Position numbers and translations under genes: made by a program. A DNA stretch of 64,000 bases. It comes from Theionarchaea archaeon. Its GTDB lineage: Archaea; Methanobacteriota_B; Thermococci; Methanofastidiosales; SZ-28-30. Below, in pieces: positions 28,101 to 43,359 of the stretch. The DNA lies in the NCBI GenBank assembly GCA_018992565.1, contig JACVGW010000001.1:36712-100711 (forward strand). Reading direction: 5' to 3'. Below the pieces are notes generated by a model, which saw nothing but the letters and a program-made list of their open reading frames with translations, searched no databases and was not told where the DNA came from. The stretch's first letter is position 1; the number at the start of each line of letters is the position of its first letter.

Positions 28101-28751
28101 ATGAAGCAATTCGTCGTAATAGGATTGGGAAGGTTTGGAATGAATCTGGCTGCCGCTTTAGCTGAAGCAGGACATGAAGTCTTGGTCATTGACGAAGACA
28201 AAAAGAAGATCGAGGCAATCAAAGAGAAGGTGACCCACGCAGTCGTAGCAGACGCTACAGATAAACAGGTCATATCTGAGTTCGTTACAGCAGATGTGGA
28301 CACCGTTGTTGTGGGAGTGAATGAAAGCATGGAAGCCAGTACTCTGGCCACATTGTACCTCAAAGAGATGGGAGTCAAAGAAGTCATTGTAAAAGCAACC
28401 AGTGATGACCATGCCAAGATATTGAAGGCCTTGGGGGCCACAGAGATAATTTATCCAGAAAAAGATGTAGCATTGAGGCTGGCTGAGAGGTTGAGTACTC
28501 CAAATCTGATTGAACATCTTCCCCTTACTCCTGAGTACAGTATTGTGGAAATTACTCCTCCTGAAGACTTTCTGGGAAAAACCCTGCGGAGCCTCGAACT
28601 ACGGAAAGAATATGGAATCGTGGTAATTGCAGTAAAAGACATGCTCACCAATACCTTCCACTTGATTCCTGGAGGAGAGTATGAAATCCGAGCAGATACT
28701 GCCCTCATAATCATAGGGAAGAAGTCTGATATCGAGAAACTGGATGTATGA
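28101..28751 (+). CDS. trkA: TrkA/KtrA K+ uptake regulatory subunit, copy 2
   Basis: Rossmann motif VVIGLGRFG. SD AGGTGA lies 4 nt upstream. A TrkA_C-like tail is present. Confidence 0.8.
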   Translation: MKQFVVIGLGRFGMNLAAALAEAGHEVLVIDEDKKKIEAIKEKVTHAVVADATDKQVISEFVTADVDTVVVGVNESMEASTLATLYLKEMGVKEVIVKATSDDHAKILKALGATEIIYPEKDVALRLAERLSTPNLIEHLPLTPEYSIVEITPPEDFLGKTLRSLELRKEYGIVVIAVKDMLTNTFHLIPGGEYEIRADTALIIIGKKSDIEKLDV

Positions 28752-29302
28752 AGCGGGTGAAACGATTGGAAATAGAAGTAAAATCCAGAGCTTGCACACT
28801 GGAGGAAGTGGAGGAGAGACTTTTGGCCATGGGGGGTGCATTTGTTGACGAGGTTATCCAGAAAGATACATATTTTAACCATCCCTGCAAAAATTTTGAA
28901 ACGACTGATGAGGCGGTTCGAATCCGGGTCTCCAATGACCGCTCTTATCTTACGTACAAGGGAAAAAAGGTGGATCCTGAAAGCAAGACTCGGGACGAAA
29001 TTGAAATCCTTATTGAAGATTCAGAGAAAGGAAAAGAAATCCTCAAATCCCTGGGCTTCATAGAAGTTGCCATTGTTGCAAAGACTCGGAGAGTGTATAG
29101 TCTGGATGAGTTCTCCGTATGCCTGGACACGGTAGACAAACTGGGAACCTTTGTGGAAGTAGAGGGATATCTGGGTGGGAACCCTGAACTTGTCCACTGT
29201 GAAAAGCTGCGCGACAAGGCTTTGAACCTGCTGAATGAGCTGCACCTCACTGACTGTGAGCGAAGATCATATCTAGAATTGCTTCTTGAGCAGGAAGAAT
29301 GA
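28748..29302 (+). CDS. CYTH-domain protein (class IV adenylyl cyclase / triphosphate tunnel metalloenzyme)
   Basis: It has the N-terminal EIEVK motif, the pattern RIR....YLTYKG and the C-terminal FVEVEG. Its start overlaps the trkA stop (ATGA). Confidence 0.75.
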   Translation: MKRVKRLEIEVKSRACTLEEVEERLLAMGGAFVDEVIQKDTYFNHPCKNFETTDEAVRIRVSNDRSYLTYKGKKVDPESKTRDEIEILIEDSEKGKEILKSLGFIEVAIVAKTRRVYSLDEFSVCLDTVDKLGTFVEVEGYLGGNPELVHCEKLRDKALNLLNELHLTDCERRSYLELLLEQEE

Positions 29303-29348
29303 AGGGTATCGGGTCAAGTCTTTTTAACAATGAAAATGAGAAGAGATT

Positions 29349-30299
29349 ATGTCCATTGAAGATGAGATTGAAACCCTGAGGCAGCAACTTCCCAATATCC
29401 TCTCAAATCCCCCCCATATTCTGAAGGCAGAGGAGGGGGATGTCATCTCTATTGTGGCAGCTGACAGACCGGACAAGGCAGTAGTCATTGGTCCAGGGGG
29501 ATACATCGCAGGACACCTTGCCAAGAACCATGAGAAACCTCTCTCCATTACAGCGTATACTGACGAGTGGATTAGAGACTTCAGAAAAGCAGAATCAAAG
29601 CGCCTGCTGACCATCATGAAGACCATGGTGACCGAAGAACAAAAAAGAGTCCTCCTTCTCCTTGAAAGCCTGCTCATGGGGCATTCATGTACTGATCCAT
29701 CGCTCACTGTAGGTGTTGCACTCTCGGGGGGGAGGGACAGCCTTGCCAGTGCAGTACTACTTCACAACGTGGTCAGAACCCAGGGATTGACTGTGTATCC
29801 ATCTGATATTATACTGCCGCGTCATCAAAGAGAATCACTTGACAGGGCTGTTGATGCTCTGGCTATTGAACACCAGTACGTGGAGGCAGACTTCTCAGAA
29901 ATCATCAACAGGACACTCAAGGGACACATTCACCCCTGCGGTCACTGCCACCAGAAAACATTCAGTGTACTGGTAGACGCCTGCATTGAACATTCAATCT
30001 CGTCCCTGGTTCTTGGAGAACTACTTCCTACTGGCTCTCAATCCCTCAGACTGGTCCGAGGAGTTCTCATTATCAACTTACCTGCTTTTCTGGCTTTGAA
30101 CAAGAGAGATACCACAAATATTGCGTCCCGGATAGAGAAATATTCTGGATTTAGACTCGGATGCCCACTGCTCAAGCAAGCCCATCGGAAATTCCCCAAC
30201 ATGAAATACGCCACTGCCAAGAGGTTGTTCAGAGAAGTGCGAGCCGGAGTGTTAGAGCCAGGAGAAGCTCTCCAGTATCTAAAACCTCTCTTGAAGTGA
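29349..30299 (+). CDS. KH-like domain + PP-loop ATP pyrophosphatase fusion protein
   Basis: The N-terminal block VVIGPGGYIAGHL is GxxG KH-like. The PP-loop motif is ALSGGRDS. A downstream PCGHCHQ pair resembles those of thiolation/lysidine-type PP-loop enzymes. Confidence 0.55.
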   Translation: MSIEDEIETLRQQLPNILSNPPHILKAEEGDVISIVAADRPDKAVVIGPGGYIAGHLAKNHEKPLSITAYTDEWIRDFRKAESKRLLTIMKTMVTEEQKRVLLLLESLLMGHSCTDPSLTVGVALSGGRDSLASAVLLHNVVRTQGLTVYPSDIILPRHQRESLDRAVDALAIEHQYVEADFSEIINRTLKGHIHPCGHCHQKTFSVLVDACIEHSISSLVLGELLPTGSQSLRLVRGVLIINLPAFLALNKRDTTNIASRIEKYSGFRLGCPLLKQAHRKFPNMKYATAKRLFREVRAGVLEPGEALQYLKPLLK

Positions 30300-30311
30300 T
30301 ATCCTGTTAGT

Positions 30312-31121
30312 TCAGGCCCTCAACAACGTCAACTTGCAGTCAATCTTGCTGCATATTCTTGAGAATACGTAACTATAGAACGGGAAAGCGAGTCGGTTGT
30401 CTTCTGAATGTCCTCTGTAGAACTGAAGAGGAAACTCATACAGGGGCGAAATCAGCAAAAATATCTGATAGAAACTGCTTCCAGGTTCTATTCCATCATA
30501 TGGTTCCAGCTCAGCCTTTCCTCGAATGGAAAACTCTCCTTCTGTCTGCTTCTCGATTTCCTCACACACAGTATCAAATCCAGGTTCATTGGAGAGCCTG
30601 GCAACTGGAGCCAGATAGAAAGAAATCCCCAGGGTACAGTACTCAAAGAGATCCGTCTGAGAGATCAAATATCGTATGCAATCCAGGAGCTCGACTTTGT
30701 TTTCTGTGTAATCCACAATAGTCCCGTACCCTTCTGTCCATTCAGAAAGATCTCCTTCAAATCCAAATCGGCTCTTCGTTTCTTGAAGTGTGGCCTCAAT
30801 TCGGGCCCGCAGTCTCTCTGCTACAGCAGAAATAACACCTTCTGGCTCATCCATCTCTTCATCCCAGAGTTCCTCATCTGGCTGAGACACATCCAGGAGC
30901 AATTCCAGGCTGAAGCCCTGAGAAATGTCCACATAGGGAGAATTGAGGATTTTCTTGGTGAGAGCGGAGACTCTCCTGGAATCTGTGGGTATTCCATAGC
31001 ATAGTTCACTGGGATCAAACTCAGTGGTCGACCACCACTCGTCTTCCATGTGCCTATTTATTGTGAGATGATTAAAAACCTTTGGCATCTTTCCCCTTGA
31101 AATCAGCCTGCACATCTGCAT
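30312..31121 (-). CDS. Hypothetical acidic protein
   Basis: Long ORF with no recognisable motif. The start is uncertain because there are several N-terminal Met codons. Confidence 0.4.
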   Translation of the reverse strand: MQMCRLISRGKMPKVFNHLTINRHMEDEWWSTTEFDPSELCYGIPTDSRRVSALTKKILNSPYVDISQGFSLELLLDVSQPDEELWDEEMDEPEGVISAVAERLRARIEATLQETKSRFGFEGDLSEWTEGYGTIVDYTENKVELLDCIRYLISQTDLFEYCTLGISFYLAPVARLSNEPGFDTVCEEIEKQTEGEFSIRGKAELEPYDGIEPGSSFYQIFLLISPLYEFPLQFYRGHSEDNRLAFPFYSYVFSRICSKIDCKLTLLRA

Positions 31122-31170
31122 GAGGTTGACTGCTATGAAAAGAATTTAAACTCCAGAATACAGCAAGATC

Positions 31171-31671
31171 ATGCCTCTGAGAACTGCAAGAAAACGTAGA
31201 GTGCAGACAGACTATGACCGAACAGCACTGTTCTATGAGAAGAGGTATCTGTCTATCCAGTGGGAAAAGTACTCTATTATGATGGAAAACCATCTAAAGG
31301 GATGTATCCTTGATTTAGGATGTGGAACGGGACTTTTATCTGAATACCTTCATAGCCGAATAGTGGGAATAGACATCTCCTTCAAGATGCTGGACCAGGC
31401 CAGAACCAGAGAACGTGTTGTACAGGGAGACATGGATTTCCTACCTTTTAGAAACGAAGTTTTTGATGCTGTAGTATCTTTCACCTCCCTGCAGAATCTC
31501 TCAGATGTGAACCCTGCATTGAAGGAAGTGAGACGAGTTCTCAAGAGTGGATCTCCTTTCATAGTGACCCTTCTGAACAAAGGCTCCTCAGTCGAGAAAG
31601 AAATTGAGAAATACTTCACTATTATATCAATTCGGCAGTGCGGAGAAGACATTGGATTCATATGCTGGTAA
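31171..31671 (+). CDS. Class I SAM-dependent methyltransferase
   Basis: Motif I is ILDLGCGTGLL. The post-I acidic residue and the motif FDAVVSFTSLQ are present. Confidence 0.7.
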   Translation: MPLRTARKRRVQTDYDRTALFYEKRYLSIQWEKYSIMMENHLKGCILDLGCGTGLLSEYLHSRIVGIDISFKMLDQARTRERVVQGDMDFLPFRNEVFDAVVSFTSLQNLSDVNPALKEVRRVLKSGSPFIVTLLNKGSSVEKEIEKYFTIISIRQCGEDIGFICW

Positions 31672-31912
31672 AACAAGGTGGGCCTGCTTGGAGCTTTCCC
31701 TCTTTCGAGGTTCTTTCCTTCTTTCCTTTTCAGGATCGATTTCTGCCGCATTGACACGAGGTCTTTGCGAGCTCTCCTTACAGACCCATTCCCTATTAGG
31801 GGGACTCAATATATAAATCTTTCGGTTCAGTTGTGTTACATTAAACTATAGGTAAAAAGAAATTTCCACTGGAAGTTTTTCATGAATTACTCTTCTCAAA
31901 ATGAGTTGACTT

Positions 31913-32689
31913 CTAAAATTCCTCCAAAATTTCGTAGTCTGCAAAATCATTATAGAATAATACCTTTTTAGCAAAAATAAATCCTTCTTTTCTACATTTC
32001 GATACCAGGGGATGAACATCCCGATACGTTCTTGAGACATGAGCTATGGCAATGGTAGTATCAGGGAGTTCCTTCTTGATCTGCTTGAGGTCTCTGAAAT
32101 GGACATGAAAGCGGTCTTCAGTCTCCTGGTACTTGCTGTCCTCAAAATACCTGCATTCAGTAACGAGAAGATGAGGACTGAGGTCTGCAATGCGAGCTTG
32201 ATTTTCTGAAGAAGAACCCTTCCAATCTCCTGTGATGAGCACTGTGAACTCTGTGTCTATTTTTTCAATGAACAGCCCCAAGTTCAGAAAAGAGTGCTCC
32301 AGGGGAATGGCTGTCAGCATGGAATTGTTGATGGGGATCTTCTGGAAAGGAATGACTGGGTTGAGCACTCGCTTTCCCTTTGAATGGAATTTGTACAGCT
32401 CTTCATGGAGCTTGAAACAGCTCATGCCATTCACTTGTGTGGTATCAAGAGGCGCAAAAATAGTGATTACCTCCCCCTGCTCCAAGAGGTAGTCAGCTCC
32501 CCCTGCTATGCTGCTTCTGATGTGGTCGAAGTGGAAATGGGTGATCCAGTGCACAAACTTGTCTGCTCGATTTGAACAGGCAGCGTCAACGCTGTAGTAC
32601 TTGTCCTGGATTCTCACACTGATATACGGATGGTATGGAGCGTGGAGTTCCAATTTGGCGACGCTGCTGCCAGTCCTGTCAACCATCAT
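31913..32689 (-). CDS. Metallo-beta-lactamase-fold hydrolase
   Basis: The HxHxDH motif is present (THFHFDHI). Confidence 0.6.
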   Translation of the reverse strand: MMVDRTGSSVAKLELHAPYHPYISVRIQDKYYSVDAACSNRADKFVHWITHFHFDHIRSSIAGGADYLLEQGEVITIFAPLDTTQVNGMSCFKLHEELYKFHSKGKRVLNPVIPFQKIPINNSMLTAIPLEHSFLNLGLFIEKIDTEFTVLITGDWKGSSSENQARIADLSPHLLVTECRYFEDSKYQETEDRFHVHFRDLKQIKKELPDTTIAIAHVSRTYRDVHPLVSKCRKEGFIFAKKVLFYNDFADYEILEEF

Positions 32690-32841
32690 GTAAAGGATGA
32701 GAATCCCGCATATAAAGGTTTCCCCAGCTTTACATAAAATTGAGAGAAATCTGTTTTAGTAGTGGAAGAGCGCAGGTGAGAAAAGTATCACGAGAGCAGG
32801 CTGCAGTTCAAGAAATGTGGGTATTCTCGGGTTCCTGTCCC

Positions 32842-33585
32842 TTACAGATAGTCAATAATACTGGCAATGATCCTGTTTTCACCTTCAGCCAGCTGTTCAT
32901 AGACAGTGGCTGGTGACAGCCCCAATTCATCTGCCAGATCTTTGATGCGTGCTCTCTTGGGTATCTCGAAATACCCTCTCAAGTATGCTCTTTTCAGTGT
33001 TCGCAACTGCTTCTCAGAAAGCAGCCCTTTCAACTCTACAACATTAATGAAAAAGGAGTCATCCACATGTTCGAGGGGATGGACTGCTGTTATCTTCACT
33101 TCTCCAATATTCTGAAGCATCTCTACCACATTCCGCAGTTTGTCAGCATCTGGGGCCAGAATCCTGTAGTGCTTGGCTCCTTTGCAGGTGACAATAGGAT
33201 TGGGAAGAAGGTAGTAACATCCTCCTCTGGAGAGAATGTCATGAACTTTGTATCTATTCTCACACCGGCACACACTCTGAACAACAATTTCATTCTGATT
33301 TTGGGAGAAGATGTCAAGTGATACAAGAGTGTCATCAGCTCTGGCCTTTTCAAGCGCTGCTCGAAGCTGAAGGGAGTCCTCACATTCCCATCGAGAAAGG
33401 CCCTTTTCCTGATGAATAGAAAAAACAGTCATGGTGATATCCGGAAACTCCTGTGAAAGCTTCTGGGCCCAGCAGCGCTCTGGTTTTATCTGGAAGCTTG
33501 CTTCTATCATGCACCTAACATATTTGGTCTGCATAAAAGGATTGTCATGAAAGAAGAGGTTATGTGACACAGGGGCAGCCTCCAA
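32842..33585 (-). CDS. HTH_10 (Bat-type) transcriptional regulator
   Basis: The C-terminal block LSEKQLRTLKRAYLRGYFEIPKRARIKDLADELGLSPATVYEQL is the HTH_10 signature. The true start may be the internal ATG at 33534. Confidence 0.65.
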   Translation of the reverse strand: MEAAPVSHNLFFHDNPFMQTKYVRCMIEASFQIKPERCWAQKLSQEFPDITMTVFSIHQEKGLSRWECEDSLQLRAALEKARADDTLVSLDIFSQNQNEIVVQSVCRCENRYKVHDILSRGGCYYLLPNPIVTCKGAKHYRILAPDADKLRNVVEMLQNIGEVKITAVHPLEHVDDSFFINVVELKGLLSEKQLRTLKRAYLRGYFEIPKRARIKDLADELGLSPATVYEQLAEGENRIIASIIDYL

Positions 33586-33588
33586 ACC

Positions 33589-33598
33589 TTTTTATAAT
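33589..33598. promoter_or_regulatory. Shared AT-rich TATA-like element between divergent genes
   Basis: TTTTTATAAT sits in the 22-nt gap between the maximal ORFs of the HTH_10 gene and the 908-aa gene. This implies that both real starts lie further inside (ATG 33534 and ATG 33647). Confidence 0.3.
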
Positions 33599-33607
33599 CA
33601 TGAAAGA

Positions 33608-36334
33608 ATGAGAAAATCCTCAACAGAAATCCTGTGGTGGTATGAGATGTACAAAGGATATCCTATTTGTCTCGAGGAAGACGATGGGACAGTTTCAGTG
33701 CTGCGTCTGAAACTTGAACCGCTGGACAAGATACGCCTACATGAAGAGGTCATCCCTGAGGCGTTTAGAAAAATCTGTAAGGCGATATGTGAAGAAAAAG
33801 TCCTTCAGGATCCAATCTTCGTTGACGAGCAGTCAAAAGTCATACTGGATGGAATGCACAGGGCTGCAGCGCTGCTCATGCTACAGTCAGGAGACTGCAA
33901 AAACCTTTTCTGGGACGAGACTGAGAAGCATTACACGTATTCGCAGTGCGAGAACTGCTCCGGCAAATTCAAGAATCTGGAGTACATTTTGTGCTGCTCC
34001 CTAGACTACGTCAACAGCAAGGCTGTGACACTGAAAAAGTGGTATCGAGGAGTTGACTTCCCTTTTGAAACAGCAATTGAGCTTTTGAAAACCAGGTATG
34101 CCATGCGAGAACAGACGGGAAAAAACGCATCTCTTCTGAAGGAAGACGCTTTTGCAGTCTTGACTGATGGAAAGAGATACGTCTCTCTCTCCGCTGGTTT
34201 TGACACAACGCTGGACAAATACATGTCTCTCCGAGACGTGGAATCCCTGATACGGGAAAATGGGGGTCACATTATGTACTGTGCTGATGAAGAAGCATAT
34301 TCGCTGCTGGAGCAGAAGAAGTTCTCATTTCTGATGATAACACCTACCATAACTCGTGAGGATGTGCAGACCTTTTCCAAGCCAGGACTTCCTGAAAAAG
34401 GAGAAGTCTTCCCTCCGAAATCTACGCGTCATCGTCTTGCCGCACGCCCTCTCAAGATCAACATTCCGCTCAGGTTACTGGAAAAGGGAGAGTATCAATT
34501 CAAACAGGAACAACTCAAAGTGTTCTTGAGAAGAAAGCGTAAATTGACTGTAACAGGCAGGCTGGAGCAATACCTGGAGAAACATAAGATACTGTTTGGA
34601 GAACCTGCAGAGTTGAAAGAACCTCTGGAAACCCCGTATCTGTGGATATGTGAATTCCCTCTGGAATTCTATGAGATTAAATACGATGTGGACCAGTTCA
34701 CTGAAGCTGTGTCTGCAGACTTGATACAGAAGGGGATGGAATTGGCATATTCTGCCTTGATCAGGGAGACCAATCGCCTGCTGCTTATTATTTCTGGTGT
34801 GAAAGATGAAATAAAGACTGAAGAGAGACTTATGTCCTTAATGGTTTCCCATTTTCCAGGTTACAAGATGAAGAACTTATTCGGCCACAGGAAGAACGGG
34901 TCCCCAGTGTGGATGATTCCTATGGAAGACTGTACTCCTTCGAGAGCCTATTTTGAACGCAACGAGAGGTTATTGAGAAAGCTGGTGAGGACTCACAATG
35001 CTGTGCAATCTGGGAGAGGAGGATTCCAGCAGGCTCTCACCAGCGCATACACGGATATCATGGTGACACATAGCTCACAGGAGCTTCTCCTCTTATTTGC
35101 CTTTCATGTCCTGGATAGCGCACCGCGGTGCAAAGTGTTTGAATATCTCCACGAGGACATTGATGACCACCAGAAGGTTTTCTCAGGAATAGAGACACTC
35201 AGGAAGAAAGGACTTCTTTCCTTGCATGACGGAGAGATTGAGCTCACTGAAAATGGTAAAGAAGTCATCACAGGGGCTCTCGCTGCCACCGGGGAACTCA
35301 CCAGCCTTTTGAGGGAGCTGTCCACAGACAAGTTCACTGGCTTTCTGAGAAAAATCGATTCAAACGTAACTCATGTCATAAAACCTGATGGCAGAAAAGA
35401 TGAGTTTCATATTGGAAGTATCATGGAATCATTGATCTTCACCGATATGGGGTGGAGAAAGGTGGCAGATGTTCTGGACAGGGTTGCAGAGGAGTTCGAG
35501 AATGTTGATTTTGTCTCTTCTGATGAGCTAACAAGCTTTGTGCAACGATACCTGGAAGAAGAACATCCACTGAGTAATGTGCCTTCCAGATACGACTATT
35601 TCATTAATTCGAGAGATCACATCTTCTCCAGAGGAGCCAGAGTCACCTCCCTGTCTCGGAATCAGATTGAACAGGACATTGATGAATTCATCCCGGAGTG
35701 CCTTGAAATGAGTGCCAGTCAGAAATCTCAGCTCTCAAACATGATATATGAAGGAGTGAGGCTCCTGACTATTCCCCTGGTGAAGGAACTGTACGAAAAA
35801 GAGCAAATTGTATTTGAAAAGCACCTTCTCCATGAGATTGAGAAATTTCTGGTGGATCAGGCAGTTCCCATCCTTGGCAAGATCAGAGATAGTCCTTCCC
35901 AGGCAGTGATTGCATATGTGAAAGAGACTCTGAAAAAGGCAGATACCCATATTGAAATAAGCGAAGACCTGCTACAGAGAATGGACTCTGAGTTCATAAG
36001 GTACTATCTTTCAGCCATGGATGAATTGACAGAATCTGTTTCAGTGGGATTGGGTAAGGTGCCTTTCTTCAGTGTGTTTGGCAGGTTGAGCCAGCTGGCT
36101 CTCGTGGTGGGAGAGCCAGAAGCCACTCCACTCTACTTCGAGCTAGACAACCTCCGCCAGTTTCTCAGTCATATGAGAAGCGTTTTCAGGAGAGCTACTT
36201 CATTACTGGATCAGTGGCGTAGTTCATATGCTCTTGAAGAAAAGGCCATACTGAAGGGGCACAAGAAAGCCTGGGAGAGTCATCTGAGAGACGTGAAGGG
36301 ATTAATTGGAAGATGTGAAAAAGCCCTGCCCTGA
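33608..36334 (+). CDS. Large multidomain protein: N-terminal ParB/Srx-fold domain + winged helix + ATP-cone + helical C-terminal region
   Basis: The ParB-type block is LDKIRLHEEVIPEAFRKICKAICEEKVLQDPIFVDEQSKVILDGMHRAAAL, with DGxHR at about nt 33848-33862. The wHTH-like block VFEYLHEDIDDHQKVFSGIETLRKKGLLSLHDGEIELTENGKEV lies at about nt 35130-35270. The ATP-cone-like block HVIKPDGRKDEFHIGSIMESLIFTDMGWRKVADVLDRVAEEFENVDFVSSDELTSFVQRYLEEE lies at about nt 35368-35570. An alternative start is ATG 33647, after GGTGGT. Confidence 0.6.
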   Translation: MRKSSTEILWWYEMYKGYPICLEEDDGTVSVLRLKLEPLDKIRLHEEVIPEAFRKICKAICEEKVLQDPIFVDEQSKVILDGMHRAAALLMLQSGDCKNLFWDETEKHYTYSQCENCSGKFKNLEYILCCSLDYVNSKAVTLKKWYRGVDFPFETAIELLKTRYAMREQTGKNASLLKEDAFAVLTDGKRYVSLSAGFDTTLDKYMSLRDVESLIRENGGHIMYCADEEAYSLLEQKKFSFLMITPTITREDVQTFSKPGLPEKGEVFPPKSTRHRLAARPLKINIPLRLLEKGEYQFKQEQLKVFLRRKRKLTVTGRLEQYLEKHKILFGEPAELKEPLETPYLWICEFPLEFYEIKYDVDQFTEAVSADLIQKGMELAYSALIRETNRLLLIISGVKDEIKTEERLMSLMVSHFPGYKMKNLFGHRKNGSPVWMIPMEDCTPSRAYFERNERLLRKLVRTHNAVQSGRGGFQQALTSAYTDIMVTHSSQELLLLFAFHVLDSAPRCKVFEYLHEDIDDHQKVFSGIETLRKKGLLSLHDGEIELTENGKEVITGALAATGELTSLLRELSTDKFTGFLRKIDSNVTHVIKPDGRKDEFHIGSIMESLIFTDMGWRKVADVLDRVAEEFENVDFVSSDELTSFVQRYLEEEHPLSNVPSRYDYFINSRDHIFSRGARVTSLSRNQIEQDIDEFIPECLEMSASQKSQLSNMIYEGVRLLTIPLVKELYEKEQIVFEKHLLHEIEKFLVDQAVPILGKIRDSPSQAVIAYVKETLKKADTHIEISEDLLQRMDSEFIRYYLSAMDELTESVSVGLGKVPFFSVFGRLSQLALVVGEPEATPLYFELDNLRQFLSHMRSVFRRATSLLDQWRSSYALEEKAILKGHKKAWESHLRDVKGLIGRCEKALP

Positions 36335-36538
36335 TGTGATGGTGGCTAGTACGGTTCCTGCCATACAGAAGAGGCAAGATGAATGATGGGCTCAACGGCA
36401 TTATAGATTCACATGCACGATAACGTATTCGGACTGCAAGAGGGTATTCTACACTTCTCCAGAGGTTCTGGAAATCAACAGCTGTATTCGCAGAGGGTTC
36501 ACACTTCTTGTGATACTATGCTACAAATTCACACATAG

Positions 36539-36547
36539 ATATATAAA
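36539..36547 (+). promoter_or_regulatory. TATA-box-like element upstream of the KaiC-like gene
   Basis: ATATATAAA ends 34 nt upstream of ATG 36581. It lies within a 247-nt gap. Confidence 0.3.
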
Positions 36548-36580
36548 CTTATAAAGGGAACCTCATAAGGGTTGAATTCT

Positions 36581-37999
36581 ATGGGAAGGATCAGAATCCC
36601 TAGAGAGGTTGCTAACTTCCTGAAACAGGAAGGAAGTCAGAGACTGATTGTGAAAGGTGATGCAGGAACAGGTAAGACAATTTTTGTTCTGTCACTGCTG
36701 CGATATCTTTCACGCTACAGCCAGGGAGTCTATGTCTCCACTAGGGTAACCCATAAGGACATCTACCGGTATACCCCGTGGGTGAGAGACAAGATTCAGA
36801 AGGATAACATCATTGACGCTACAAACCCTCAGGGCACGCTCTTGTCTATGGAATCTGAGTTGAAGTACAACAGCGCAGGTGACTTTGTAAAGATCATAGC
36901 TGACAAGTGCCGGCTTCTGGAAGTCCTAGACATGAAATACGGTTGCGTGATCATTGATTCCTGGGAATCTCTGGTGGCCAATATCCCATATCCTCGAACT
37001 GATGGTGGAATTCAGTTGGAACGGACTTTGATAGATCTTTCCAAAGAAATGAATGTCAACCTCATTCTCACCCTGGAAACCACGGCCAGCACCCGGCTGG
37101 ACTATGTGGCAGATGGCGTGGTCTCCATGGAAAAAGAACTCATCAATGAAAACAGAATCCGCACCATGCGACTGAAAAAACTGAGAGGGGTCAAGATTAC
37201 AAACCCTGTCTATCCTTTTACGTTGGACGGTGGGAAATTTCAGGTTCTGGAACCTGAGCCCATATACTTCGAACCCAAGAAGTCCAAGCGATTGAGGAGG
37301 ATACGACCTCCCACACCTAACCATGTCTCCTCGGGGATCAGAGACTTTGATGGGCTGCTGGGAAGTGGTCTCAAGAAAGGCAGCCTGAACCTCTTGGAGG
37401 TGGGAAAGGGATTGGGATTTTCTTACATTCCTTTTGTCACCATTTCTGTCATCAATGCCTTGAATACTGGAATGAGCGCCATTGTAGCAGTACCTGAAGG
37501 GATCAACTTCTCATTATTGAAGGAACGGCTGGTTGGGCCGTTCGTTAAGCCTGAATTGTACAGCAATGCACGGGTGGTGGAGGAGACATACATGCCTGAA
37601 AATGAACTCCCTTCTGAAGTCACTCCATTGAGAATTGCCAGAACACACAAGGATTTTCTTGATCTCCTGGAAGCACTGAGAGAGAGACTGCAGCGTCCGA
37701 CTCTGCAGATCATAGGAATGGACAACGTGGAACACAAGTATGGATTCTCCAATATCCAGAGTGACCTTGGAAGAGTCTCGTCTCAAAACAGGAGCTCCCA
37801 GGACATAACAGTGCTGGTTGCAAAAGAAGGACAGCAAATCACTCCCCACCTGGGCCACATATGCGACACACACTGGAGACTGGAGACCATTAGCAAATGT
37901 CTCTTCATGGAAGGCATCATACCCAAGACAGGTCTCTATCATATACATTTTTACGATTCCACGTCAGGTCCTGCAGCCCGGCTGACTCCTCTTCTCTGA
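36581..37999 (+). CDS. Two-domain KaiC/RecA-superfamily ATPase (first P-loop intact, second degenerate)
   Basis: Domain 1 has Walker A GDAGTGKT and Walker B-like CVIIDSWE. Domain 2 begins with the KaiC-type SGIRDFDGLLGSGLKKGSLNLLEVG, but GKGLGFSY replaces the P-loop. Confidence 0.65.
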   Translation: MGRIRIPREVANFLKQEGSQRLIVKGDAGTGKTIFVLSLLRYLSRYSQGVYVSTRVTHKDIYRYTPWVRDKIQKDNIIDATNPQGTLLSMESELKYNSAGDFVKIIADKCRLLEVLDMKYGCVIIDSWESLVANIPYPRTDGGIQLERTLIDLSKEMNVNLILTLETTASTRLDYVADGVVSMEKELINENRIRTMRLKKLRGVKITNPVYPFTLDGGKFQVLEPEPIYFEPKKSKRLRRIRPPTPNHVSSGIRDFDGLLGSGLKKGSLNLLEVGKGLGFSYIPFVTISVINALNTGMSAIVAVPEGINFSLLKERLVGPFVKPELYSNARVVEETYMPENELPSEVTPLRIARTHKDFLDLLEALRERLQRPTLQIIGMDNVEHKYGFSNIQSDLGRVSSQNRSSQDITVLVAKEGQQITPHLGHICDTHWRLETISKCLFMEGIIPKTGLYHIHFYDSTSGPAARLTPLL

Positions 38000-38036
38000 C
38001 CACAAGACTTATATTTGGCTATCTGTAGGTGTTCGT

Positions 38037-40142
38037 ATGCCTGGAAAAGTTATCCCTCTGATGCTTTTGTCTCTCCTGGTCCTAGCCGCTGCAGATGGGG
38101 TTTTCGAGCAAAAAGAAACCCATGACTTGAGCAAGCACATGTCAACATTGCTCAGCCTGTGGGCAGGGGACATAGATGCTGATCGTACAGCAGAAATACT
38201 GGCAGGAGGTATCATCTACGAAGGAGCCATTTCAAAAGGTATTCTTGTCCAGATTAAGCGAAATGATATCTCTATTCTTGCAAAAATCCCCTCCACGTCC
38301 AGGACTGTCGTTATTACAGTGTGTGATGCTACTGCTGATACTGGCCAAGAGATAGTTGTGGGAGCCAATGACCTGTACGTGTACACGAGGGGGGGAAAAT
38401 TGTTGACCACAAAGCCAGTGGGAGGAGATGTAACTGCAGTCCAGGCACTAGACACTGGAGACTCCCCCCTCAGTGAAATCATATGTGGGACTTCATCGGG
38501 GGAGGTATTGTATTTTGTTAATCTGGAAACCAAGGCACAGGTTTCTGTAATGAAGTCAGTAACTCAGATTCTGAAAAGAGACGATGGGACTTTTTATGCC
38601 ATTGCAGGCCAGTCCATAAACTGTATCAGTACCGGCGGAGAGAAGCTGTGGCTGCATAATGCCCAGGGAGAGATAACAAGCGCAGCAGTATATGACATGG
38701 ATGGAGATACTGTCAATGAGCTCATATATGTTGCAGGACCCAGCATCTATACCCTCTCTTCTGACGGGAAGAAAGAGACCCTGCTCATGACACCTTCCAA
38801 CCATCCCCTCTCTCTTCTAGTAAAGGATTTCACAGAGGACGGTAAGCCAGACCTCGTGGTGGCCGACAGCAAGGACAGCGTTGCCGTCTATTCTAACCTG
38901 AAGCAGCAGGTTGAATCCCTTTTTTTCAGAAGGGAAGCAGGTGAAATTCCTCTTCTGTTTGCTGCAAACGTGGCAGGAGACCAAAAGACTGACCTTGTCT
39001 ATGGAGGGGTGACGAAAGTCCATGTTCTGGAAAACATCATACCGTCGGCAGAATTGGTCACAAGAGGACAGCAGGTGCTCAGTGAAGGGAAAGGACTCCT
39101 GGAAGAAAGGGAATATGAGAGAGCAAAATCCAAATTCGAAGAGGCAGAAAGAATATTTTCTCTGGGAGGAGAAGAGAGACTGGCAGCAGAATGTCAAGCA
39201 TATATCGAGGAGATCACAGCACTATTAAAAAGGAAATCACAAGCAGAAAATGCCATAAAAGAAGGGAAAGATTTGTTTTCGCAGGGAGAATATGAAAAAG
39301 CCAAGATCCAGTTTGAACTTGCAGCCCAGGAATATGGGCTGCTGGCAGGCCAGGATTCTTACTACCAACCCTATGCAGAAGAGGCACGAACGCTTGTGAA
39401 TCAATGTGATGAGGCCATAGCAGATCGCTATTTTGACGCTGGAATGGAATATCTCAGCAACAGTCAGTATGATGGGGCCAGGGAGTATTTTGAAGCTGCG
39501 GAGGCTATTTATTCTCAAATTGGCAGCAAAAAGGCTGAACTGTGCCTTGAAAAGATCCAGCAGATCGAAGATGAGCTGGGAAGGAAACCGATAGAAAAAG
39601 ACATGACAATATTCTTCTATGCAGGGGTAGTACTCCTTATTGCTGCTGTCGTGGTGATATTGTTTGCCACCAGGAAGAAAGTGTCCACAAAATTGGAGAA
39701 GGGTCGTCTGTACCTCCTGCTTGAGCCACAGCCCAAGAAAGCTCTCCAGCTGATCAAAGAGTATGGAAGGATAGGATATGAAGGTCTGGTGATCAGCAGA
39801 CTTCCAGCCGAGCAACTGCGGAAGAAAAAGCTGAAGAAACAAAAAATACTACAGTTTTCAAGCACCAGCAAGGAGGACAGCATTCCTCCAGACAACGTAG
39901 TTAATATACTGCTTGGCATGAAGGAGTTCATGACTAGCAGAGACAGCAGCATCATACTGCTGGATAGTCTGGATTACCTTATCATCCAGAACTCTTTTGA
40001 AGATGCATTCAGTCTCATCCAGAAATTGGCGGAATCAGTGACGCTGTATAAAGGCATTGTCCTGGCAGTATTGAATCCCAAGAGCGTGGAAGAGAGAGAA
40101 CTTGTTCTTCTGGAAGGAGAAATGGAACTTCTGGAAATATGA
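38037..40142 (+). CDS. Receptor-like protein: signal peptide + FG-GAP/VCBS beta-propeller + TPR-like repeats + TM helix + cytoplasmic DUF835
   Basis: The signal peptide is MPGKVIPLMLLSLLVLAAADG. FG-GAP-like motifs are DIDADRTAEILAGG, DMDGDTVNELIYV, DFTEDGKPDLVVAD and AGDQKTDLVYGG. Three G..L...gEYE.AK..FE.A repeats follow. The TM helix is IFFYAGVVLLIAAVVVILFA. The DUF835-like tail is GLVISR...ILLDSLDYLIIQNSFEDAFSLIQKL...AVLNPKSVEERELVLLEGEM. Confidence 0.6.
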   Translation: MPGKVIPLMLLSLLVLAAADGVFEQKETHDLSKHMSTLLSLWAGDIDADRTAEILAGGIIYEGAISKGILVQIKRNDISILAKIPSTSRTVVITVCDATADTGQEIVVGANDLYVYTRGGKLLTTKPVGGDVTAVQALDTGDSPLSEIICGTSSGEVLYFVNLETKAQVSVMKSVTQILKRDDGTFYAIAGQSINCISTGGEKLWLHNAQGEITSAAVYDMDGDTVNELIYVAGPSIYTLSSDGKKETLLMTPSNHPLSLLVKDFTEDGKPDLVVADSKDSVAVYSNLKQQVESLFFRREAGEIPLLFAANVAGDQKTDLVYGGVTKVHVLENIIPSAELVTRGQQVLSEGKGLLEEREYERAKSKFEEAERIFSLGGEERLAAECQAYIEEITALLKRKSQAENAIKEGKDLFSQGEYEKAKIQFELAAQEYGLLAGQDSYYQPYAEEARTLVNQCDEAIADRYFDAGMEYLSNSQYDGAREYFEAAEAIYSQIGSKKAELCLEKIQQIEDELGRKPIEKDMTIFFYAGVVLLIAAVVVILFATRKKVSTKLEKGRLYLLLEPQPKKALQLIKEYGRIGYEGLVISRLPAEQLRKKKLKKQKILQFSSTSKEDSIPPDNVVNILLGMKEFMTSRDSSIILLDSLDYLIIQNSFEDAFSLIQKLAESVTLYKGIVLAVLNPKSVEERELVLLEGEMELLEI

Positions 40143-40780
40143 ATGGGTTGACCATGAAAGGAATAGTCCTGATGTCAGGAGGCATCGATTCTCCTGTGGC
40201 TGCCTACTTGATGGCGAATTACGACCTGATAGCACTTCACTGTGACAATAACCCGTATACTGAAGGTGCGAAACAGGCTGCTGCAGCAGTCACCGCTCGA
40301 TTGGAAGATGTTCTGAAGAAGGAAATTCCATTCTTCGTTGCTCCTCACGGCGAAGTATTAACCGAGTTCCTCAGAGTATGCGAGGCTGAAGGCCGGAAAT
40401 ATACCTGCCTCTTTTGCAAGCGTATGATGTTCAGGGTGGGTGAAAGGATTGCCCTGGATATGGGGGGCGATTTCCTGGTTACTGGAGAGAATCTCGGCCA
40501 GGTGGCATCTCAGACACTCCAGAATATTCTTGTAACCTCACGGGCAGTCCAGATCCCCATAGTACGTCCAGTCATTGGGCTGGATAAACTGGATATCATC
40601 AGCATTGCTGAGACGGTTGGCACATATGAAATCTCAACAGGAAAGGCTGCAACCTGCCGCGCTGTTCCCCGTTATCCCGCCACCCGAGCACAACTGCATA
40701 CAGTGGAAGCTCTTGAGAAGCGTCTCCCCATTGAACGCCTTGTTTCACGTGCTGCAGAAGCCGCGGAAGAAGCCCATTGA
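40139..40780 (+). CDS. ThiI-like PP-loop sulfurtransferase domain protein (no THUMP domain)
   Basis: Motifs SGGIDSPVAAYL, CLFCKRMM and TGENLGQVASQTLQN...RPVIGLDKLDII are present. The start overlaps the upstream stop (ATGA). Confidence 0.7.
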   Translation: MNGLTMKGIVLMSGGIDSPVAAYLMANYDLIALHCDNNPYTEGAKQAAAAVTARLEDVLKKEIPFFVAPHGEVLTEFLRVCEAEGRKYTCLFCKRMMFRVGERIALDMGGDFLVTGENLGQVASQTLQNILVTSRAVQIPIVRPVIGLDKLDIISIAETVGTYEISTGKAATCRAVPRYPATRAQLHTVEALEKRLPIERLVSRAAEAAEEAH

Positions 40781-40848
40781 GGGCCTCTGGAAGTGCAGGC
40801 TTTCACAGGCGGCAGAAGAATTATAAGACCTCGCCCGTACGTTATCAT

Positions 40849-42231
40849 ATGAATGAAGTGGAGACTTCTATTTTGGACTGCAATTCCAGGTACTTTGGCT
40901 TTGACACTCTCCAGCTTATGGAGAATGCAGGAAGAAGTGTGGCACAGGAGATTGAGAATCGGTATTCACATGATAATAAAATAGGCATTTTTTGCGGAAG
41001 AGGGAATAATGGGGGAGATGGATTTGTGGCTGCACGATTCCTGGCAGAGCACAATGACGTCACTGTCTATCTGGTGGGATCACCAAGAGATATATATACT
41101 GAAGAAGCACGGAAAAACTATTCCATTTTGAAGAATACGTCTGTGAAGAGTCAGATCATCCTGGATACAAAAACCATACAGATCGCTAAGCATGACATCA
41201 TTGTGGATGCACTTCTTGGAACAGGTATCCAGGGAGAACTGCGAGAGCCCTACCGAACACTGGTTGAAAAGATGAATGCATGTCCTGCAGCGAAAGTCTC
41301 AGTAGATATTCCCACAGGATACAACACGTCAGTCCAGATAGCAGCAGATCTCGTCATCTCCATGCACTACGAGAAAGTCCCTTCATGTGTGGTTGCTACC
41401 ATAGGAGTTCCCACCCAAATTGAATCACTGGTTGGCCCGGGTGATGTGAGATTCCTAAAACGGAGAAAGAACGATTCACACAAGGGGGACAATGGGAGAG
41501 TACTCATTGTTGGGGGCTCAGAGCTCTACCATGGGGCACCTGTCTATTCCGGCACAGCAGCTTCCAAGATTTCAGACCTTGTCTTTATTGCGTGCCCCCG
41601 GTCTGCAGCTCCCGTAATTAAAGGGGCTACCCCAGATTTCATAGTCCACCCTCTCTCTTCAGAGTATCTGGTACCTGAAGATGTCTCCACACTCGAGGAT
41701 CTTGCTGAATCCTGCGACATTGTCCTCATCGGGCCCGGGCTGGGAATCCATCCGAAGACCCAGAAGGCCTGCCAGAGCCTGTTTGCACTCGATATTCCCA
41801 AGGTGATAGATGCAGATGGACTCAAAGCACTGAAAGGAATGGTTGATGTACTAGCTCCTCCTGCTGTTCTAACGCCTCATCATGGGGAATTCGCCCACGT
41901 ATTCGGCACTCAGTCGGTACAGGATGCGGCTCGAGAACATGCCTGTATTATCGTCCAGAAAGGTGTCACTGACGTTATCACCACTGGAACTCGCACCAAG
42001 TACAATCATACAGGAAATGCAGGGATGACCACAGGAGGGACGGGGGACATTCTCGCAGGTCTCATTACAGGGTTCGGTGCGGTCAATGACTTGTTCCAGG
42101 CCTCATGTGCTGCAGCCTTTGTTAGTGGAATGGCGGGAGATCGCTGTTACCAGAAGATGGGGTTTCACTACTCGGCTTCTGATGTACTGGACCAGCTGCA
42201 ACCTACCTTACAGTGGTGCGAGACATTCTGA
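40849..42231 (+). CDS. nnr: Bifunctional NAD(P)H-hydrate repair enzyme (YjeF_N epimerase + carbohydrate-kinase-like dehydratase)
   Basis: The N domain has GRGNNGGDGFVAARFL. The C domain has HKGDNGRVLIVGGS..YHGAP and GTGDILAG. The start was moved to ATG 40849. Confidence 0.8.
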   Translation: MNEVETSILDCNSRYFGFDTLQLMENAGRSVAQEIENRYSHDNKIGIFCGRGNNGGDGFVAARFLAEHNDVTVYLVGSPRDIYTEEARKNYSILKNTSVKSQIILDTKTIQIAKHDIIVDALLGTGIQGELREPYRTLVEKMNACPAAKVSVDIPTGYNTSVQIAADLVISMHYEKVPSCVVATIGVPTQIESLVGPGDVRFLKRRKNDSHKGDNGRVLIVGGSELYHGAPVYSGTAASKISDLVFIACPRSAAPVIKGATPDFIVHPLSSEYLVPEDVSTLEDLAESCDIVLIGPGLGIHPKTQKACQSLFALDIPKVIDADGLKALKGMVDVLAPPAVLTPHHGEFAHVFGTQSVQDAAREHACIIVQKGVTDVITTGTRTKYNHTGNAGMTTGGTGDILAGLITGFGAVNDLFQASCAAAFVSGMAGDRCYQKMGFHYSASDVLDQLQPTLQWCETF

Positions 42232-43359
42232 TTCTACTGCCTTCCGTATTTCTTCCAGATACTGATGGTAGGGATAGTATAGGGTGCAAGTATCAGGGTT
42301 ATAGCATTTGGTGTCTATAGTCTGCATCACCCAGAAAGATGCGGGAAACGATCTCAAAAAGTAGAATTTCTTGTCCTCTATCTCCACGTACCGATCCAGG
42401 TCCTGCAACAGCTTTATGAGAAAAGAGGGATGACAGACGCACTGCACTACGCCATAGTCCTGTCCTCCAGAAAAAGGAGTCCAGTAGGTCAATCGTTCCT
42501 GGATACGCACGTTTTTGCCAAAATTGAACAGGAGTCGATCGGTCTTTTCCCGATGACTGCTGCGCATTAACAGGATGAACCTGGAGCACTTCTCTCTCGG
42601 AATGGGATATACATTGTAATACTCCTCGATAATGTTGAGGTCAAGAAGCTTTCGGGCAGAAGACTTGAGCTCCGAATACGTGAGAAAGAGACCCTCCTTC
42701 TGTCGCTCATACTGACTGATCTTGCGCAGATTGCACTCCCCGATGCCCAGAAAGAGGTCCTCAATGAGGGAAAGATCACACGTAGTGAGAGATTCGCCAC
42801 AGAACTCACCAAGAGAAAGATCGGGCACCTCAGTCTCTTCCAACAACCTGTCCAGTGATGGAATGAGAGGGACTGGCTCATTCTTGTGGGTTACGAAGAG
42901 AGGATTTCTCAGATACCAGGAGGTCTTCTGCAAGTACAGGTCATAATGAACCAGAATATCACACTGCAAGAGATAGTCAAAAATCTCCTTGAGTTTTTCC
43001 TGATCAGAGCATACAAAGGAAGAGACCAGCATTCTAAAAGACTGTTCAAATACTGGATAGAGAGTGACAAAACAGCCGATCTTTTTTAGCAAATTAATGA
43101 CATATGGATAATCCCTGCGAAACATGAGCACTGCAATCATTCGACAGAGACGGTTCTTGGTAAATCGCCCCACATCCACATCGAAGTAAGGACCTGAGAG
43201 GTATCCTGCCTGTTTTAGCCTACGCTTTACCGCAGAAACATAGACTGAATTCTTGTAGTTTGAAAGAGTCGCCAGCCTTTCATTGGGAATATTCGGGTCT
43301 TTCGCCAAGCATTGTAGTATTAGTTTACGTCTCAACGGCAGATTGTCCTCAGTTTCCAT
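42208..43359 (-). CDS. Putative two-module winged-helix protein, distant paralogue of ORF 23477-24442
   Basis: The N-terminal block LRRKLILQCLAKDPNIPNERLATLSNYKNSVYVSAVKRRLKQAGYLSGP is HTH-like. A second HTH-like segment lies mid-protein. Confidence 0.4.
   Translation of the reverse strand: METEDNLPLRRKLILQCLAKDPNIPNERLATLSNYKNSVYVSAVKRRLKQAGYLSGPYFDVDVGRFTKNRLCRMIAVLMFRRDYPYVINLLKKIGCFVTLYPVFEQSFRMLVSSFVCSDQEKLKEIFDYLLQCDILVHYDLYLQKTSWYLRNPLFVTHKNEPVPLIPSLDRLLEETEVPDLSLGEFCGESLTTCDLSLIEDLFLGIGECNLRKISQYERQKEGLFLTYSELKSSARKLLDLNIIEEYYNVYPIPREKCSRFILLMRSSHREKTDRLLFNFGKNVRIQERLTYWTPFSGGQDYGVVQCVCHPSFLIKLLQDLDRYVEIEDKKFYFLRSFPASFWVMQTIDTKCYNPDTCTLYYPYHQYLEEIRKAVESECLAPL

Follow-up and report, generated by a model that had tools for sequence, protein, structure and literature searches.

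Architecture of the fused protein

A stretch of 64,000 nucleotides from a Theionarchaea archaeon (contig JACVGW010000001.1, positions 36,712 to 100,711), referred to here as the window, carries on its plus strand, at 33608..36334, a gene whose product is, as judged from alignments, an end-to-end fusion of two complete open reading frames (ORFs) that form an operon pair elsewhere among the archaea. The first part (aa ~30-330) is a two-lobed kinase fold of the SerK/SbnI free-serine kinase type, and the second is a partner of ~600 residues with an alpha/beta domain, a MarR-like winged helix, an ATP-cone and a helical domain. Known parts are therefore met here in a new, conserved combination, along with an unannotated family of ~600-aa proteins. 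To our knowledge, SerK/SbnI kinases have been described as small enzymes that stand alone, and ATP-cones have been seen almost exclusively in the control of ribonucleotide reduction, within ribonucleotide reductases (RNRs) and NrdR. The pairing of a SerK-type kinase with an ATP-cone protein spans Asgard, Thermoproteota and Theionarchaea, is fused in one lineage, and points to an unstudied control module for the SerK-type kinase family.

The interval 33608..36334 is one unbroken ORF of 908 aa, on which residues are numbered throughout (M1 at 33608). The peptides quoted in the original prediction, which had been made from the DNA letters alone, lie where it placed them: LEPLDK...DGMHRAAAL at aa 36-89, FPPKSTRHRL at aa 268-277 and HVIKPDGRKDEFHIGSIMESL...SSDELTSFVQRYLEE at aa 589-652. 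The true start is most likely M14 rather than the ATG at 33608, which gives a likely coding sequence of 33647..36334 (+), 895 aa plus stop. This choice follows from three features of the sequence: the homologous proteins, as annotated, begin with MYKGYP, which corresponds to M14; a GGTG Shine-Dalgarno-like motif stands ~7 nt 5' of the ATG at 33647; and a B recognition element (BRE)/TATA-like element, AAACCTTTTTATAA (33584-33597, +), ends 11 nt from the ATG at 33608, too near for a start there, and ~50 nt from that at 33647. The element, a putative promoter, is invariant across related loci, with C89 and the TTTTTATA core unchanged in 5/5 Theionarchaeal loci. The predicted ORF and fusion are thus real, and it is the predicted length of 908 aa that gives way, probably to 895.

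The closest database entry, 100% identical, is a 'hypothetical protein' of a Theionarchaea archaeon metagenome-assembled genome (MAG), the class being placed within Methanobacteriota in the NCBI taxonomy. A word-indexed homologue search returned 25 protein clusters of 54-100% identity, drawn from NCBI, JGI, ENA and Logan, and those that are named all come from Theionarchaea or Methanofastidiosia. Most of the clusters cover nearly all 908 aa, while a few entries are truncated. As the clusters come from four independent data sources and are mostly near full-length, the fusion is real and not an artefact of assembly. None of the 25 clusters carries a precomputed Pfam domain, and one homologue is labelled a PadR-family regulator by JGI. 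No description of the partner family or of the architecture was found in the libraries and texts checked, where the sources name a 'hypothetical protein'; full-text literature searches that paired ATP-cone with serine kinase, or with winged helix plus archaea, gave no relevant result.

The N-terminal SerK/SbnI-type kinase domain

Comparison of the N-terminus with NCBIfam gave matches to SerK (E 1.5e-13, 50.5 bits, cut-off 380) and to SbnI (E 3.5e-9, 36.4 bits, cut-off 350). Fold and motifs place the domain within the SerK/SbnI family, as a distant relative and not an equivalog. When the family was searched against sequences of the Protein Data Bank (PDB), the N-terminal matches were SerK (1VK1, 5X0B and others) and SbnI (5UJD, 6NR6) alone, and the C-lobe profile matched SerK residues 90-239 with an E value of 9e-11. 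The AlphaFold model of the full protein has a mean predicted local distance difference test score (pLDDT) of 71.9. With this model the same nine SerK/SbnI chains rank first in Foldseek (E 5.5e-10 to 4e-7), with template-modelling (TM) scores of 0.58-0.70, target-normalised, over 263-302 alignment columns and the whole chain length.

The N-lobe (ParB/Srx-like, aa 30-95, 33695..33892, +) has been delimited from SerK alignments and conserved residues. It holds the LHE motif, in which E46 (33743-33745, +) is aligned with the catalytic E30 of SerK, and DGMHR (aa 81-85, 33848-33862, +), which represents the SerK DGxHR motif; E46 and DGMHR are each at least 90% conserved among 24 homologues. The residue roles of SerK were taken from mutant chains in the PDB, where E30A and E30Q of Thermococcus kodakarensis SerK (Tk-SerK) fix E30 on E46. 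The C-lobe with its tail (aa 131-330, 33998..34597, +), evident from SerK profile matches and invariant columns, includes the invariant motif GEVFPPKSTRH (aa 265-275, 34400-34432, +), of which FPPKSTRH is unchanged in 24/24 members and has FSPKTTRH as its counterpart in SerK. Pfam gives no match to ParBc (PF02195) in the protein at E<=1.

Between the lobes, following the DGMHR helix, lies a Cys-rich insertion of ~35 residues (aa 96-130, 33893..33997, +), which is absent from SerK, from SbnI and from every split SerK-like protein aligned, where it appears as a gap. Its residues C97, C114, C117 and C130 are at least 90% conserved, and plausibly make up a Cys4 metal site.

The alpha/beta, winged-helix and helical domains of the partner

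The two halves are joined by a linker of 10 low-confidence residues (aa 331-340, GEPAELKEPL..., 34598..34627, +), at which the alignment ends of the kinase and the partner meet; pLDDT falls below 50 at aa 309-336. Pfam and NCBIfam assign no domain to aa 331-908, and the partner has been divided on the basis of the model and of collinearity with its stand-alone homologues.

The alpha/beta domain (aa 341-470, 34628..35017, +), assigned from DSSP on the model and collinear with the N-termini of the stand-alone homologues, has the order beta-alpha-beta-beta-alpha-(beta). It showed no PDB sequence match (best E 0.47) and no Pfam match. A ferredoxin/ACT-like nature is suggested by an impression of the modelled topology alone. 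HMG-CoA reductase, SerB2 and an engineered ferredoxin fold appeared among the low-ranked Foldseek matches of the full-length model (TM <0.35, root-mean-square deviation >19 Å over ~300-500 columns), and were not used.

The winged helix (aa ~480-572, 35045..35323, +) is assigned from Foldseek and from sub-threshold Pfam matches. In the search with the full model, BpsR, OhrR, MarR and RovA were matched at probability 1.0, the MarR family forming the next coherent group after SerK/SbnI, with ~105-135 columns and TM ~0.5-0.6, target-normalised. The Pfam families HTH_45, PadR and ANAPC2 were matched in several members, always below threshold. The net charge of this region has a median of -3 in the fused proteins and -2.5 in the split ones, and no Arg or Lys is conserved in the recognition helix or wing of either. 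A match to eS24 (E 0.003, profile positions 435-525), without support from Foldseek, was treated as chance.

The protein ends in an all-helical domain (aa 680-908, 35645..36331, +), seen by DSSP with pLDDT mostly 80-94. For these ~230 residues, which are collinear with the stand-alone homologues, no relative of known structure or family could be detected.

The ATP-cone

The ATP-cone (aa 586-672, 35363..35623, +) has been assigned from a model of the isolated domain, from Foldseek and from Pfam matches in relatives. In the protein itself the Pfam ATP-cone family PF03477 scores 16.1 bits (E 0.017), short of the gathering score of 25.8; matches at E<=1 occur in 15/24 members, the best having an E value of 3.4e-4. 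In two stand-alone homologues the same position exceeds the gathering score (P0031, 26.1 bits; P0033, 28.0 bits), and P0029 and P0032 fall narrowly under it at the homologous position. Modelled alone (aa 572-672, from a 22-sequence alignment), the region gave a pLDDT of 80.2 and a predicted TM score of 0.72, with a beta-hairpin, two helices, a strand and two further helices, in agreement with the hairpin lid over a four-helix bundle that characterises ATP-cones. The best 50 PDB matches of this model in Foldseek are all ATP-cones of NrdD, NrdR, NrdA and NrdB, including class III and class I RNRs; the best 33 have a probability of at least 0.9, the TM scores are 0.49-0.65, query-normalised, and the best E value is 4e-3. 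No ATP-cone chain was recovered from the PDB sequences at E<=10, either with a whole-family profile or with one of the cone region, so the assignment relies on the fold, on the Pfam model and on transitive homology. On these grounds the predicted ATP-cone fold of aa 586-672 is considered established.

The nucleotide-contacting residues of Streptomyces coelicolor NrdR are K50, R51, E56 and K62 (PMC9110341). Among 24 fused proteins the K50 site is Lys or Arg in 23 and the E56 site is Asp in 21, while Pro occupies the R51 site and Ser the K62 site in all 24. Among 18 split relatives a basic residue is found at R51 in 15, at K62 in 17 and at K50 in 5.

The three domains named in the original prediction are all upheld by these results. 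The ParB/Srx-fold N-terminus that it named agrees with Foldseek, the PDB and NCBIfam, with the specification that it belongs to SerK/SbnI, and the ~200 residues after DGxHR (with FPPKSTRHRL), proposed there to complete a kinase-like ParB-fold module, are the SerK C-lobe. The winged helix foreseen at ~510-555 falls in the MarR-like region, the ATP-cone foreseen at ~588-655 is recovered by the isolated-domain model and by the distant homologues passing Pfam, and of the ~250 residues of helical sequence expected after it, ~230 are modelled as helices. The structure search, which had been proposed as the means of refuting the assignment, gave the expected folds for the N-terminal and 580-660 segments.

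The stand-alone partner family and the origin of the fusion

A profile of aa 316-908, run exhaustively with HMMER against 1.84 billion representative proteins, returned only 14 proteins at E<=0.001, of which 12 (P0027-P0038) are stand-alone partners. Ten of these are 578-613 aa long and two are shorter (487 and 509 aa). They match collinearly, profile positions ~150-560 falling on about equal positions in each, and can be jointly aligned from end to end. Those with source names are from Asgard archaea (Njordarchaeia, Njordarchaeales, Asgardarchaeia). A word-indexed search with a mixed alignment returned just 2 proteins.

A separate SerK-like gene of ~295 aa lies directly 5' of the partner, on the same strand, in loci L007, L009, L012 and L013, the gap being 10 bp in L007 and 41-43 bp in the other three; in L010 it is one gene away. 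The sole Asgard contig examined that has no SerK-like gene near the partner is the short contig of L011. The split SerK-like genes match a hidden Markov model (HMM) of the Theionarchaeal N-domain with E values of 4.5e-17 to 2e-40, and in the fused protein aa ~316-330 correspond to their C-terminal tail (…G…DRFYE…F), after which come the linker and then the partner from its first residues. This amounts to the joining, end to end, of two complete ORFs. Fusion is more parsimonious than fission, as the fused form is confined to one lineage; in the searches made it was found in Theionarchaea/Methanofastidiosia only.

To define the wider distribution, the SerK-domain alignment was used as a query against GTDB, with one genome per species, and the neighbourhoods of the 80 best loci were inspected. 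The scan gave 300 relatives sharing VILDGMHR and FPPK[TS]TRH, from Bathyarchaeia, Hadarchaeota, many Asgard lineages, Desulfurococcaceae and others. One of the 80 best loci is the fused Theionarchaeal gene, here too with the divergent HTH_10-family regulator gene described below. In seven, a full-length partner stands immediately 3' of the SerK-like gene; they come from Heimdallarchaeota, Baldrarchaeum, Njordarchaeum, Thermoprotei, Thermoproteales, an unclassified archaeon and a contig labelled Nitrososphaerota. In five of the seven (L018, L022, L025, L029 and L039) the partner ORF, taken from stop to stop, overlaps the SerK-like ORF. Two further loci have a shorter partner downstream of the SerK-like gene, of 318 and 373 aa (stop to stop; L015 8802-9755 and L021 8761-9879), consisting of the N-domain and winged helix only, with neither ATP-cone nor helical domain, which suggests that the second half, cone plus helices, was added on. 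The pairing thus turns up repeatedly in archaeal phyla that are far apart, but is not universal for SerK-like genes.

In L012, L013 and L088 the pair is flanked by genes for a 2-hydroxyacid dehydrogenase resembling phosphoglycerate dehydrogenase (PGDH) and for a class-V aminotransferase, the PGDH-like genes matching TIGR01327 with E values of 1e-94 (L012) to 4e-98. L088 is probably from the same genome as L012, since both carry protein P0034. The same flanking genes occur in L089 and L091, where no partner is present, and in L015 they lie a few kb from the short partner. In Desulfurococcales, serK has the same PGDH-like and aminotransferase neighbours, which have been read as a route from serine through phosphoserine to 3-phosphoglycerate (Makino et al., PMC5120207). 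Theionarchaea possess SepRS, a consumer of phosphoserine (PMC5424206).

The taxon labels of the MAGs carrying L088 and P0034 need caution: L088 (CAZFGR010000001.1) is labelled 'uncultured Nitrososphaerota archaeon', and NCBI lists P0034 under 'Candidatus Njordarchaeales archaeon'. Two other genes recur near the split pair in Asgard loci. One encodes a SAM_HAT protein (PF01887, SAM hydroxide adenosyltransferase family; L010 5081-5902, L011 2064-2870, L013 1-759, L029 1-840, L088 1692-2516), which in L010 lies between the SerK-like gene and the partner on the opposite strand; no SAM_HAT gene was found in the 64-kb window (E<=1e-3). The other is an ORF of 536-588 aa without Pfam or NCBIfam match (L010 494-2113, -; L012 1695-3461, +; L013 1841-3451, +), which occurs along with an ASCH-domain gene and does not match the partner-module HMM.

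Proposed function and alternative explanations

The explanation favoured, though tentatively and somewhat short of being probable, is a catalytically active kinase of the serine type, gated by a regulatory subunit which is fused to it and senses nucleotides or a metabolite. Both the catalytic activity of the kinase and the regulatory role of the partner are inferred. According to this scheme the substrate of the SerK/SbnI-family kinase would be a free amino acid, L-serine being the likeliest, with O-phosphoserine as product, and the ~600-aa partner, with its four domains, would act as the regulatory subunit. The ATP-cone, and perhaps the alpha/beta domain too, would sense adenine nucleotides or a metabolite, and ligand sensing would alter the oligomeric or conformational state of the kinase-partner complex. 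Phosphoserine production would thereby follow the energy or metabolite status of the cell, much as in RNRs, where ATP-cones gate the enzyme through nucleotide-dependent conformational or oligomeric change (PMC11226230). Transcription of the fused gene in Theionarchaea would probably be under the divergent HTH_10 regulator described below, and not under its own product.

An enzyme subunit is preferred to a transcription factor on three grounds: the tight spacing or overlap of the split ORFs, the acidity of the winged helix, which has no conserved basic residues, and the dedicated HTH_10 regulator found at every fused locus, where other neighbours vary. The abutting or overlapping of the split ORFs also suggests stoichiometric co-production of the two proteins. 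If the module does gate phosphoserine formation, it would be a new archaeal tie of serine catabolism and cysteine supply (through Sep-tRNA) to energy status, and the functional range of ATP-cones would widen beyond ribonucleotide reduction, without amounting to a new principle. The fused protein also offers a single-chain construct for testing the kinase-partner interaction.

Several observations weigh against this explanation. The identity to SerK is ~20% and the score far under the NCBIfam SerK equivalog cut-off, so that the substrate and the phosphate donor are uncertain; in addition, a SerK-like protein has been reported as CTP-binding (PMC12704722). The replacement of NrdR R51 and K62 by Pro and Ser in all fused proteins makes altered or lost nucleotide sensing possible, and the fused cone may bind nucleotide differently or not at all. 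The complete MarR-like fold right before the ATP-cone resembles the layout of NrdR and fits a DNA-binding regulator. No serA-like or serC-like gene was found in the 64-kb window (E<=1e-3). Finally, ~70 of the 80 best GTDB loci have a SerK-like gene with no such partner nearby, from which it follows that the partner is not generally required.

A distinctly less likely, though serious, explanation is a trigger-enzyme transcription factor, in which the winged helix binds DNA, the ATP-cone controls this binding through nucleotide-dependent oligomerisation, and the SerK domain serves as the metabolic input, as in SbnI, BirA and PutA; its targets would be serine/phosphoserine genes or the shared divergent promoter. 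It draws on the completeness of the MarR-like fold, matched by Foldseek with full probability, and on the passage from winged helix directly to ATP-cone, an order like that of Zn-ribbon and cone in NrdR (PMC9110341). It is also consistent with the naming of SbnI, of the same kinase family, as a bifunctional regulator/enzyme by NCBIfam, with the PadR-family label of one homologue, with a conserved palindrome in the shared intergenic region, and with the short partner variants that retain only the N-domain and winged helix. However, the acidic winged helix is devoid of any conserved basic residue in helix or wing, the abutting or overlapping of the split partner and kinase ORFs is more typical of complex subunits, every fused locus has a separate HTH_10 regulator, and the fused cone is without equivalents of R51 and K62. 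The claim of the original prediction that the protein is a transcription or chromatin factor with two nucleotide-binding modules is not established, in view of the kinase-type N-domain, the acidic winged helix and the Pro and Ser at the cone sites of R51 and K62. It is possible, but rather unlikely, that the ~600-aa partner constitutes an unrecognised family of archaeal nucleotide-sensing transcription factors, playing in serine/phosphoserine metabolism the part of an archaeal NrdR, with members in Asgard, Thermoproteota and Theionarchaea, and fused to its enzyme in the last. In that event the Theionarchaeal protein would be a true trigger enzyme, a single chain that couples catalysis with adenylate sensing and DNA binding.

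It is improbable that the SerK-like domain is something other than a serine kinase, i.e. another small-molecule kinase or a ligand-sensing pseudo-enzyme acting as the sensor of a different pathway. Besides the low SerK identity, the lineage-specific Cys4 insertion in the N-lobe, the lack of serine-pathway genes in the window and the variation of neighbours between fused loci can be cited in its favour. The catalytic Glu, DGxHR and PK(S/T)TRH are, however, conserved with the experimentally characterised SerK, some split relatives have PGDH-like and aminotransferase genes beside them, like serK in Desulfurococcales (PMC5120207), and the SepRS of Theionarchaea needs phosphoserine (PMC5424206).

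Although the N-lobe has a ParB/Srx fold with DGxHR, a ParB-type nucleotide-dependent DNA clamp or chromatin factor is very improbable, as the protein has no PF02195 match at E<=1, its best structure and sequence matches are to SerK/SbnI over both lobes, reading of the sequence reveals no GERRxR-type CTP motif, and it has no ParB helix-turn-helix, no C-terminal dimerisation domain and no parA among its neighbours. An assembly or frameshift artefact joining two neighbouring genes, to which the occurrence of the halves as separate adjacent genes in other archaea might point, has a negligible chance of being correct, as the fused ORF recurs in 25 clusters, drawn from assemblies and sources that are independent of one another, at 54-100% identity, with a conserved junction and a common MYKGYP start.

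Comparison with known systems

The closest characterised relative is Tk-SerK (TK0378; PDB 5X0B), an ADP-dependent free L-serine kinase (PMC5120207), with which the fused protein shares the two-lobe fold, the catalytic Glu in (L/P)HE, DGxHR and GEVFxPKxTRH, and whose neighbourhood of PGDH-like and aminotransferase genes is shared by the split relatives. SerK differs in being a stand-alone enzyme of 242 aa without the Cys4 insertion, with ~20% identity, and it has no winged-helix/ATP-cone/helical extension; nor has such an operon partner been reported for it. Staphylococcus SbnI (5UJD, 6NR6), a regulator and O-phospho-L-serine synthase, belongs to the same kinase family and provides a precedent for a regulatory role. 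It is ~254 aa long, has no separate winged helix or ATP-cone, and carries PAGVTRF where SerK has PKxTRH. Its regulatory input is haem, and its DNA binding is ascribed to the protein of kinase fold itself.

With NrdR, the ATP-cone repressor of RNR genes (PMC9110341), the protein has in common a putative DNA-binding-type domain followed directly by an ATP-cone, and the isolated cone model superposes on NrdR cones with TM ~0.6, query-normalised. The differences are a Zn-ribbon in NrdR in place of the winged helix, the size of NrdR (~150 aa, without enzyme domain, as against 895 aa here), and the absence of R51 and K62 equivalents from the fused proteins; no NrdR boxes are involved, and the ORFs scanned around the fused gene (28101-43359) include no RNR genes. 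In class I and III RNRs and in archaeal 2-phosphoglycerate kinase the cone is likewise an allosteric module on a metabolic enzyme, the latter being a case of an ATP-cone on a kinase that acts on a C3 metabolite. The cone of these enzymes is, however, N-terminal and adjoins the catalytic domain, whereas here it lies ~250 residues past the kinase, inside a four-domain module.

Fusions of the ParB-CTPase fold (PMC12704722) offer a parallel as lineage-specific archaeal fusions of a ParB/Srx-type nucleotide-binding fold. The text of this 2025 survey contains no mention of ATP-cone fusions, and a figure legend in it defines the fold by PF02195, which is not matched here. Strictly taken, the protein falls outside the NrdR, ParB-CTPase and MarR families.

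Gene context

Upstream and divergent to the fused gene lies a gene for an HTH_10-family regulator (HVO_A0563_N + HTH_10, 222 aa from M26; 32842..33510, -; Pfam HTH_10 E 1.1e-15). It is the only neighbour kept in all fused loci, being divergent in L001-L006 and in L014. An imperfect palindrome, CCTAACATATTTGG (33514-33527), with the consensus CC(T/A)AA(C/T)ATATT(T/A)GG, stands 4 nt upstream of the HTH_10 start codon and is conserved in 5/5 loci, including the intergenic regions of L001, L003, L005 and L006. It is a single site in the 64-kb window, seen on both strands, where 0.2 chance matches would be expected. Lying between a minus-strand TATA-like element (~33533-33538) and the HTH_10 ATG, it has an operator-like position and may be considered a candidate operator.

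Downstream of the fused gene are genes for a GvpD-like KaiC-type ATPase (36572..37999) and a beta-propeller/TPR/DUF835 protein (38037..40142), followed by those for a ThiI-like protein and YjeF/Nnr, the four-gene block falling within 36572-42231. This order is kept in L003 and L004, and not in L001, L005 and L006. A link to gas vesicles was rejected, as the GvpD-like ATPase occurs in some fused loci only and the ORFs scanned (28101-43359) yielded no structural genes of gas vesicles; the GvpD-like protein presumably has another role. A defence-system reading was also set aside, PADLOC having given only weak winged-helix matches (E~0.008). In L001, the most divergent fused locus (P0022), a phosphoglycerate kinase gene (PF00162, 10940-12250) is located immediately downstream; the other fused loci do not share it, and it is suggestive given the 3-phosphoglycerate link.

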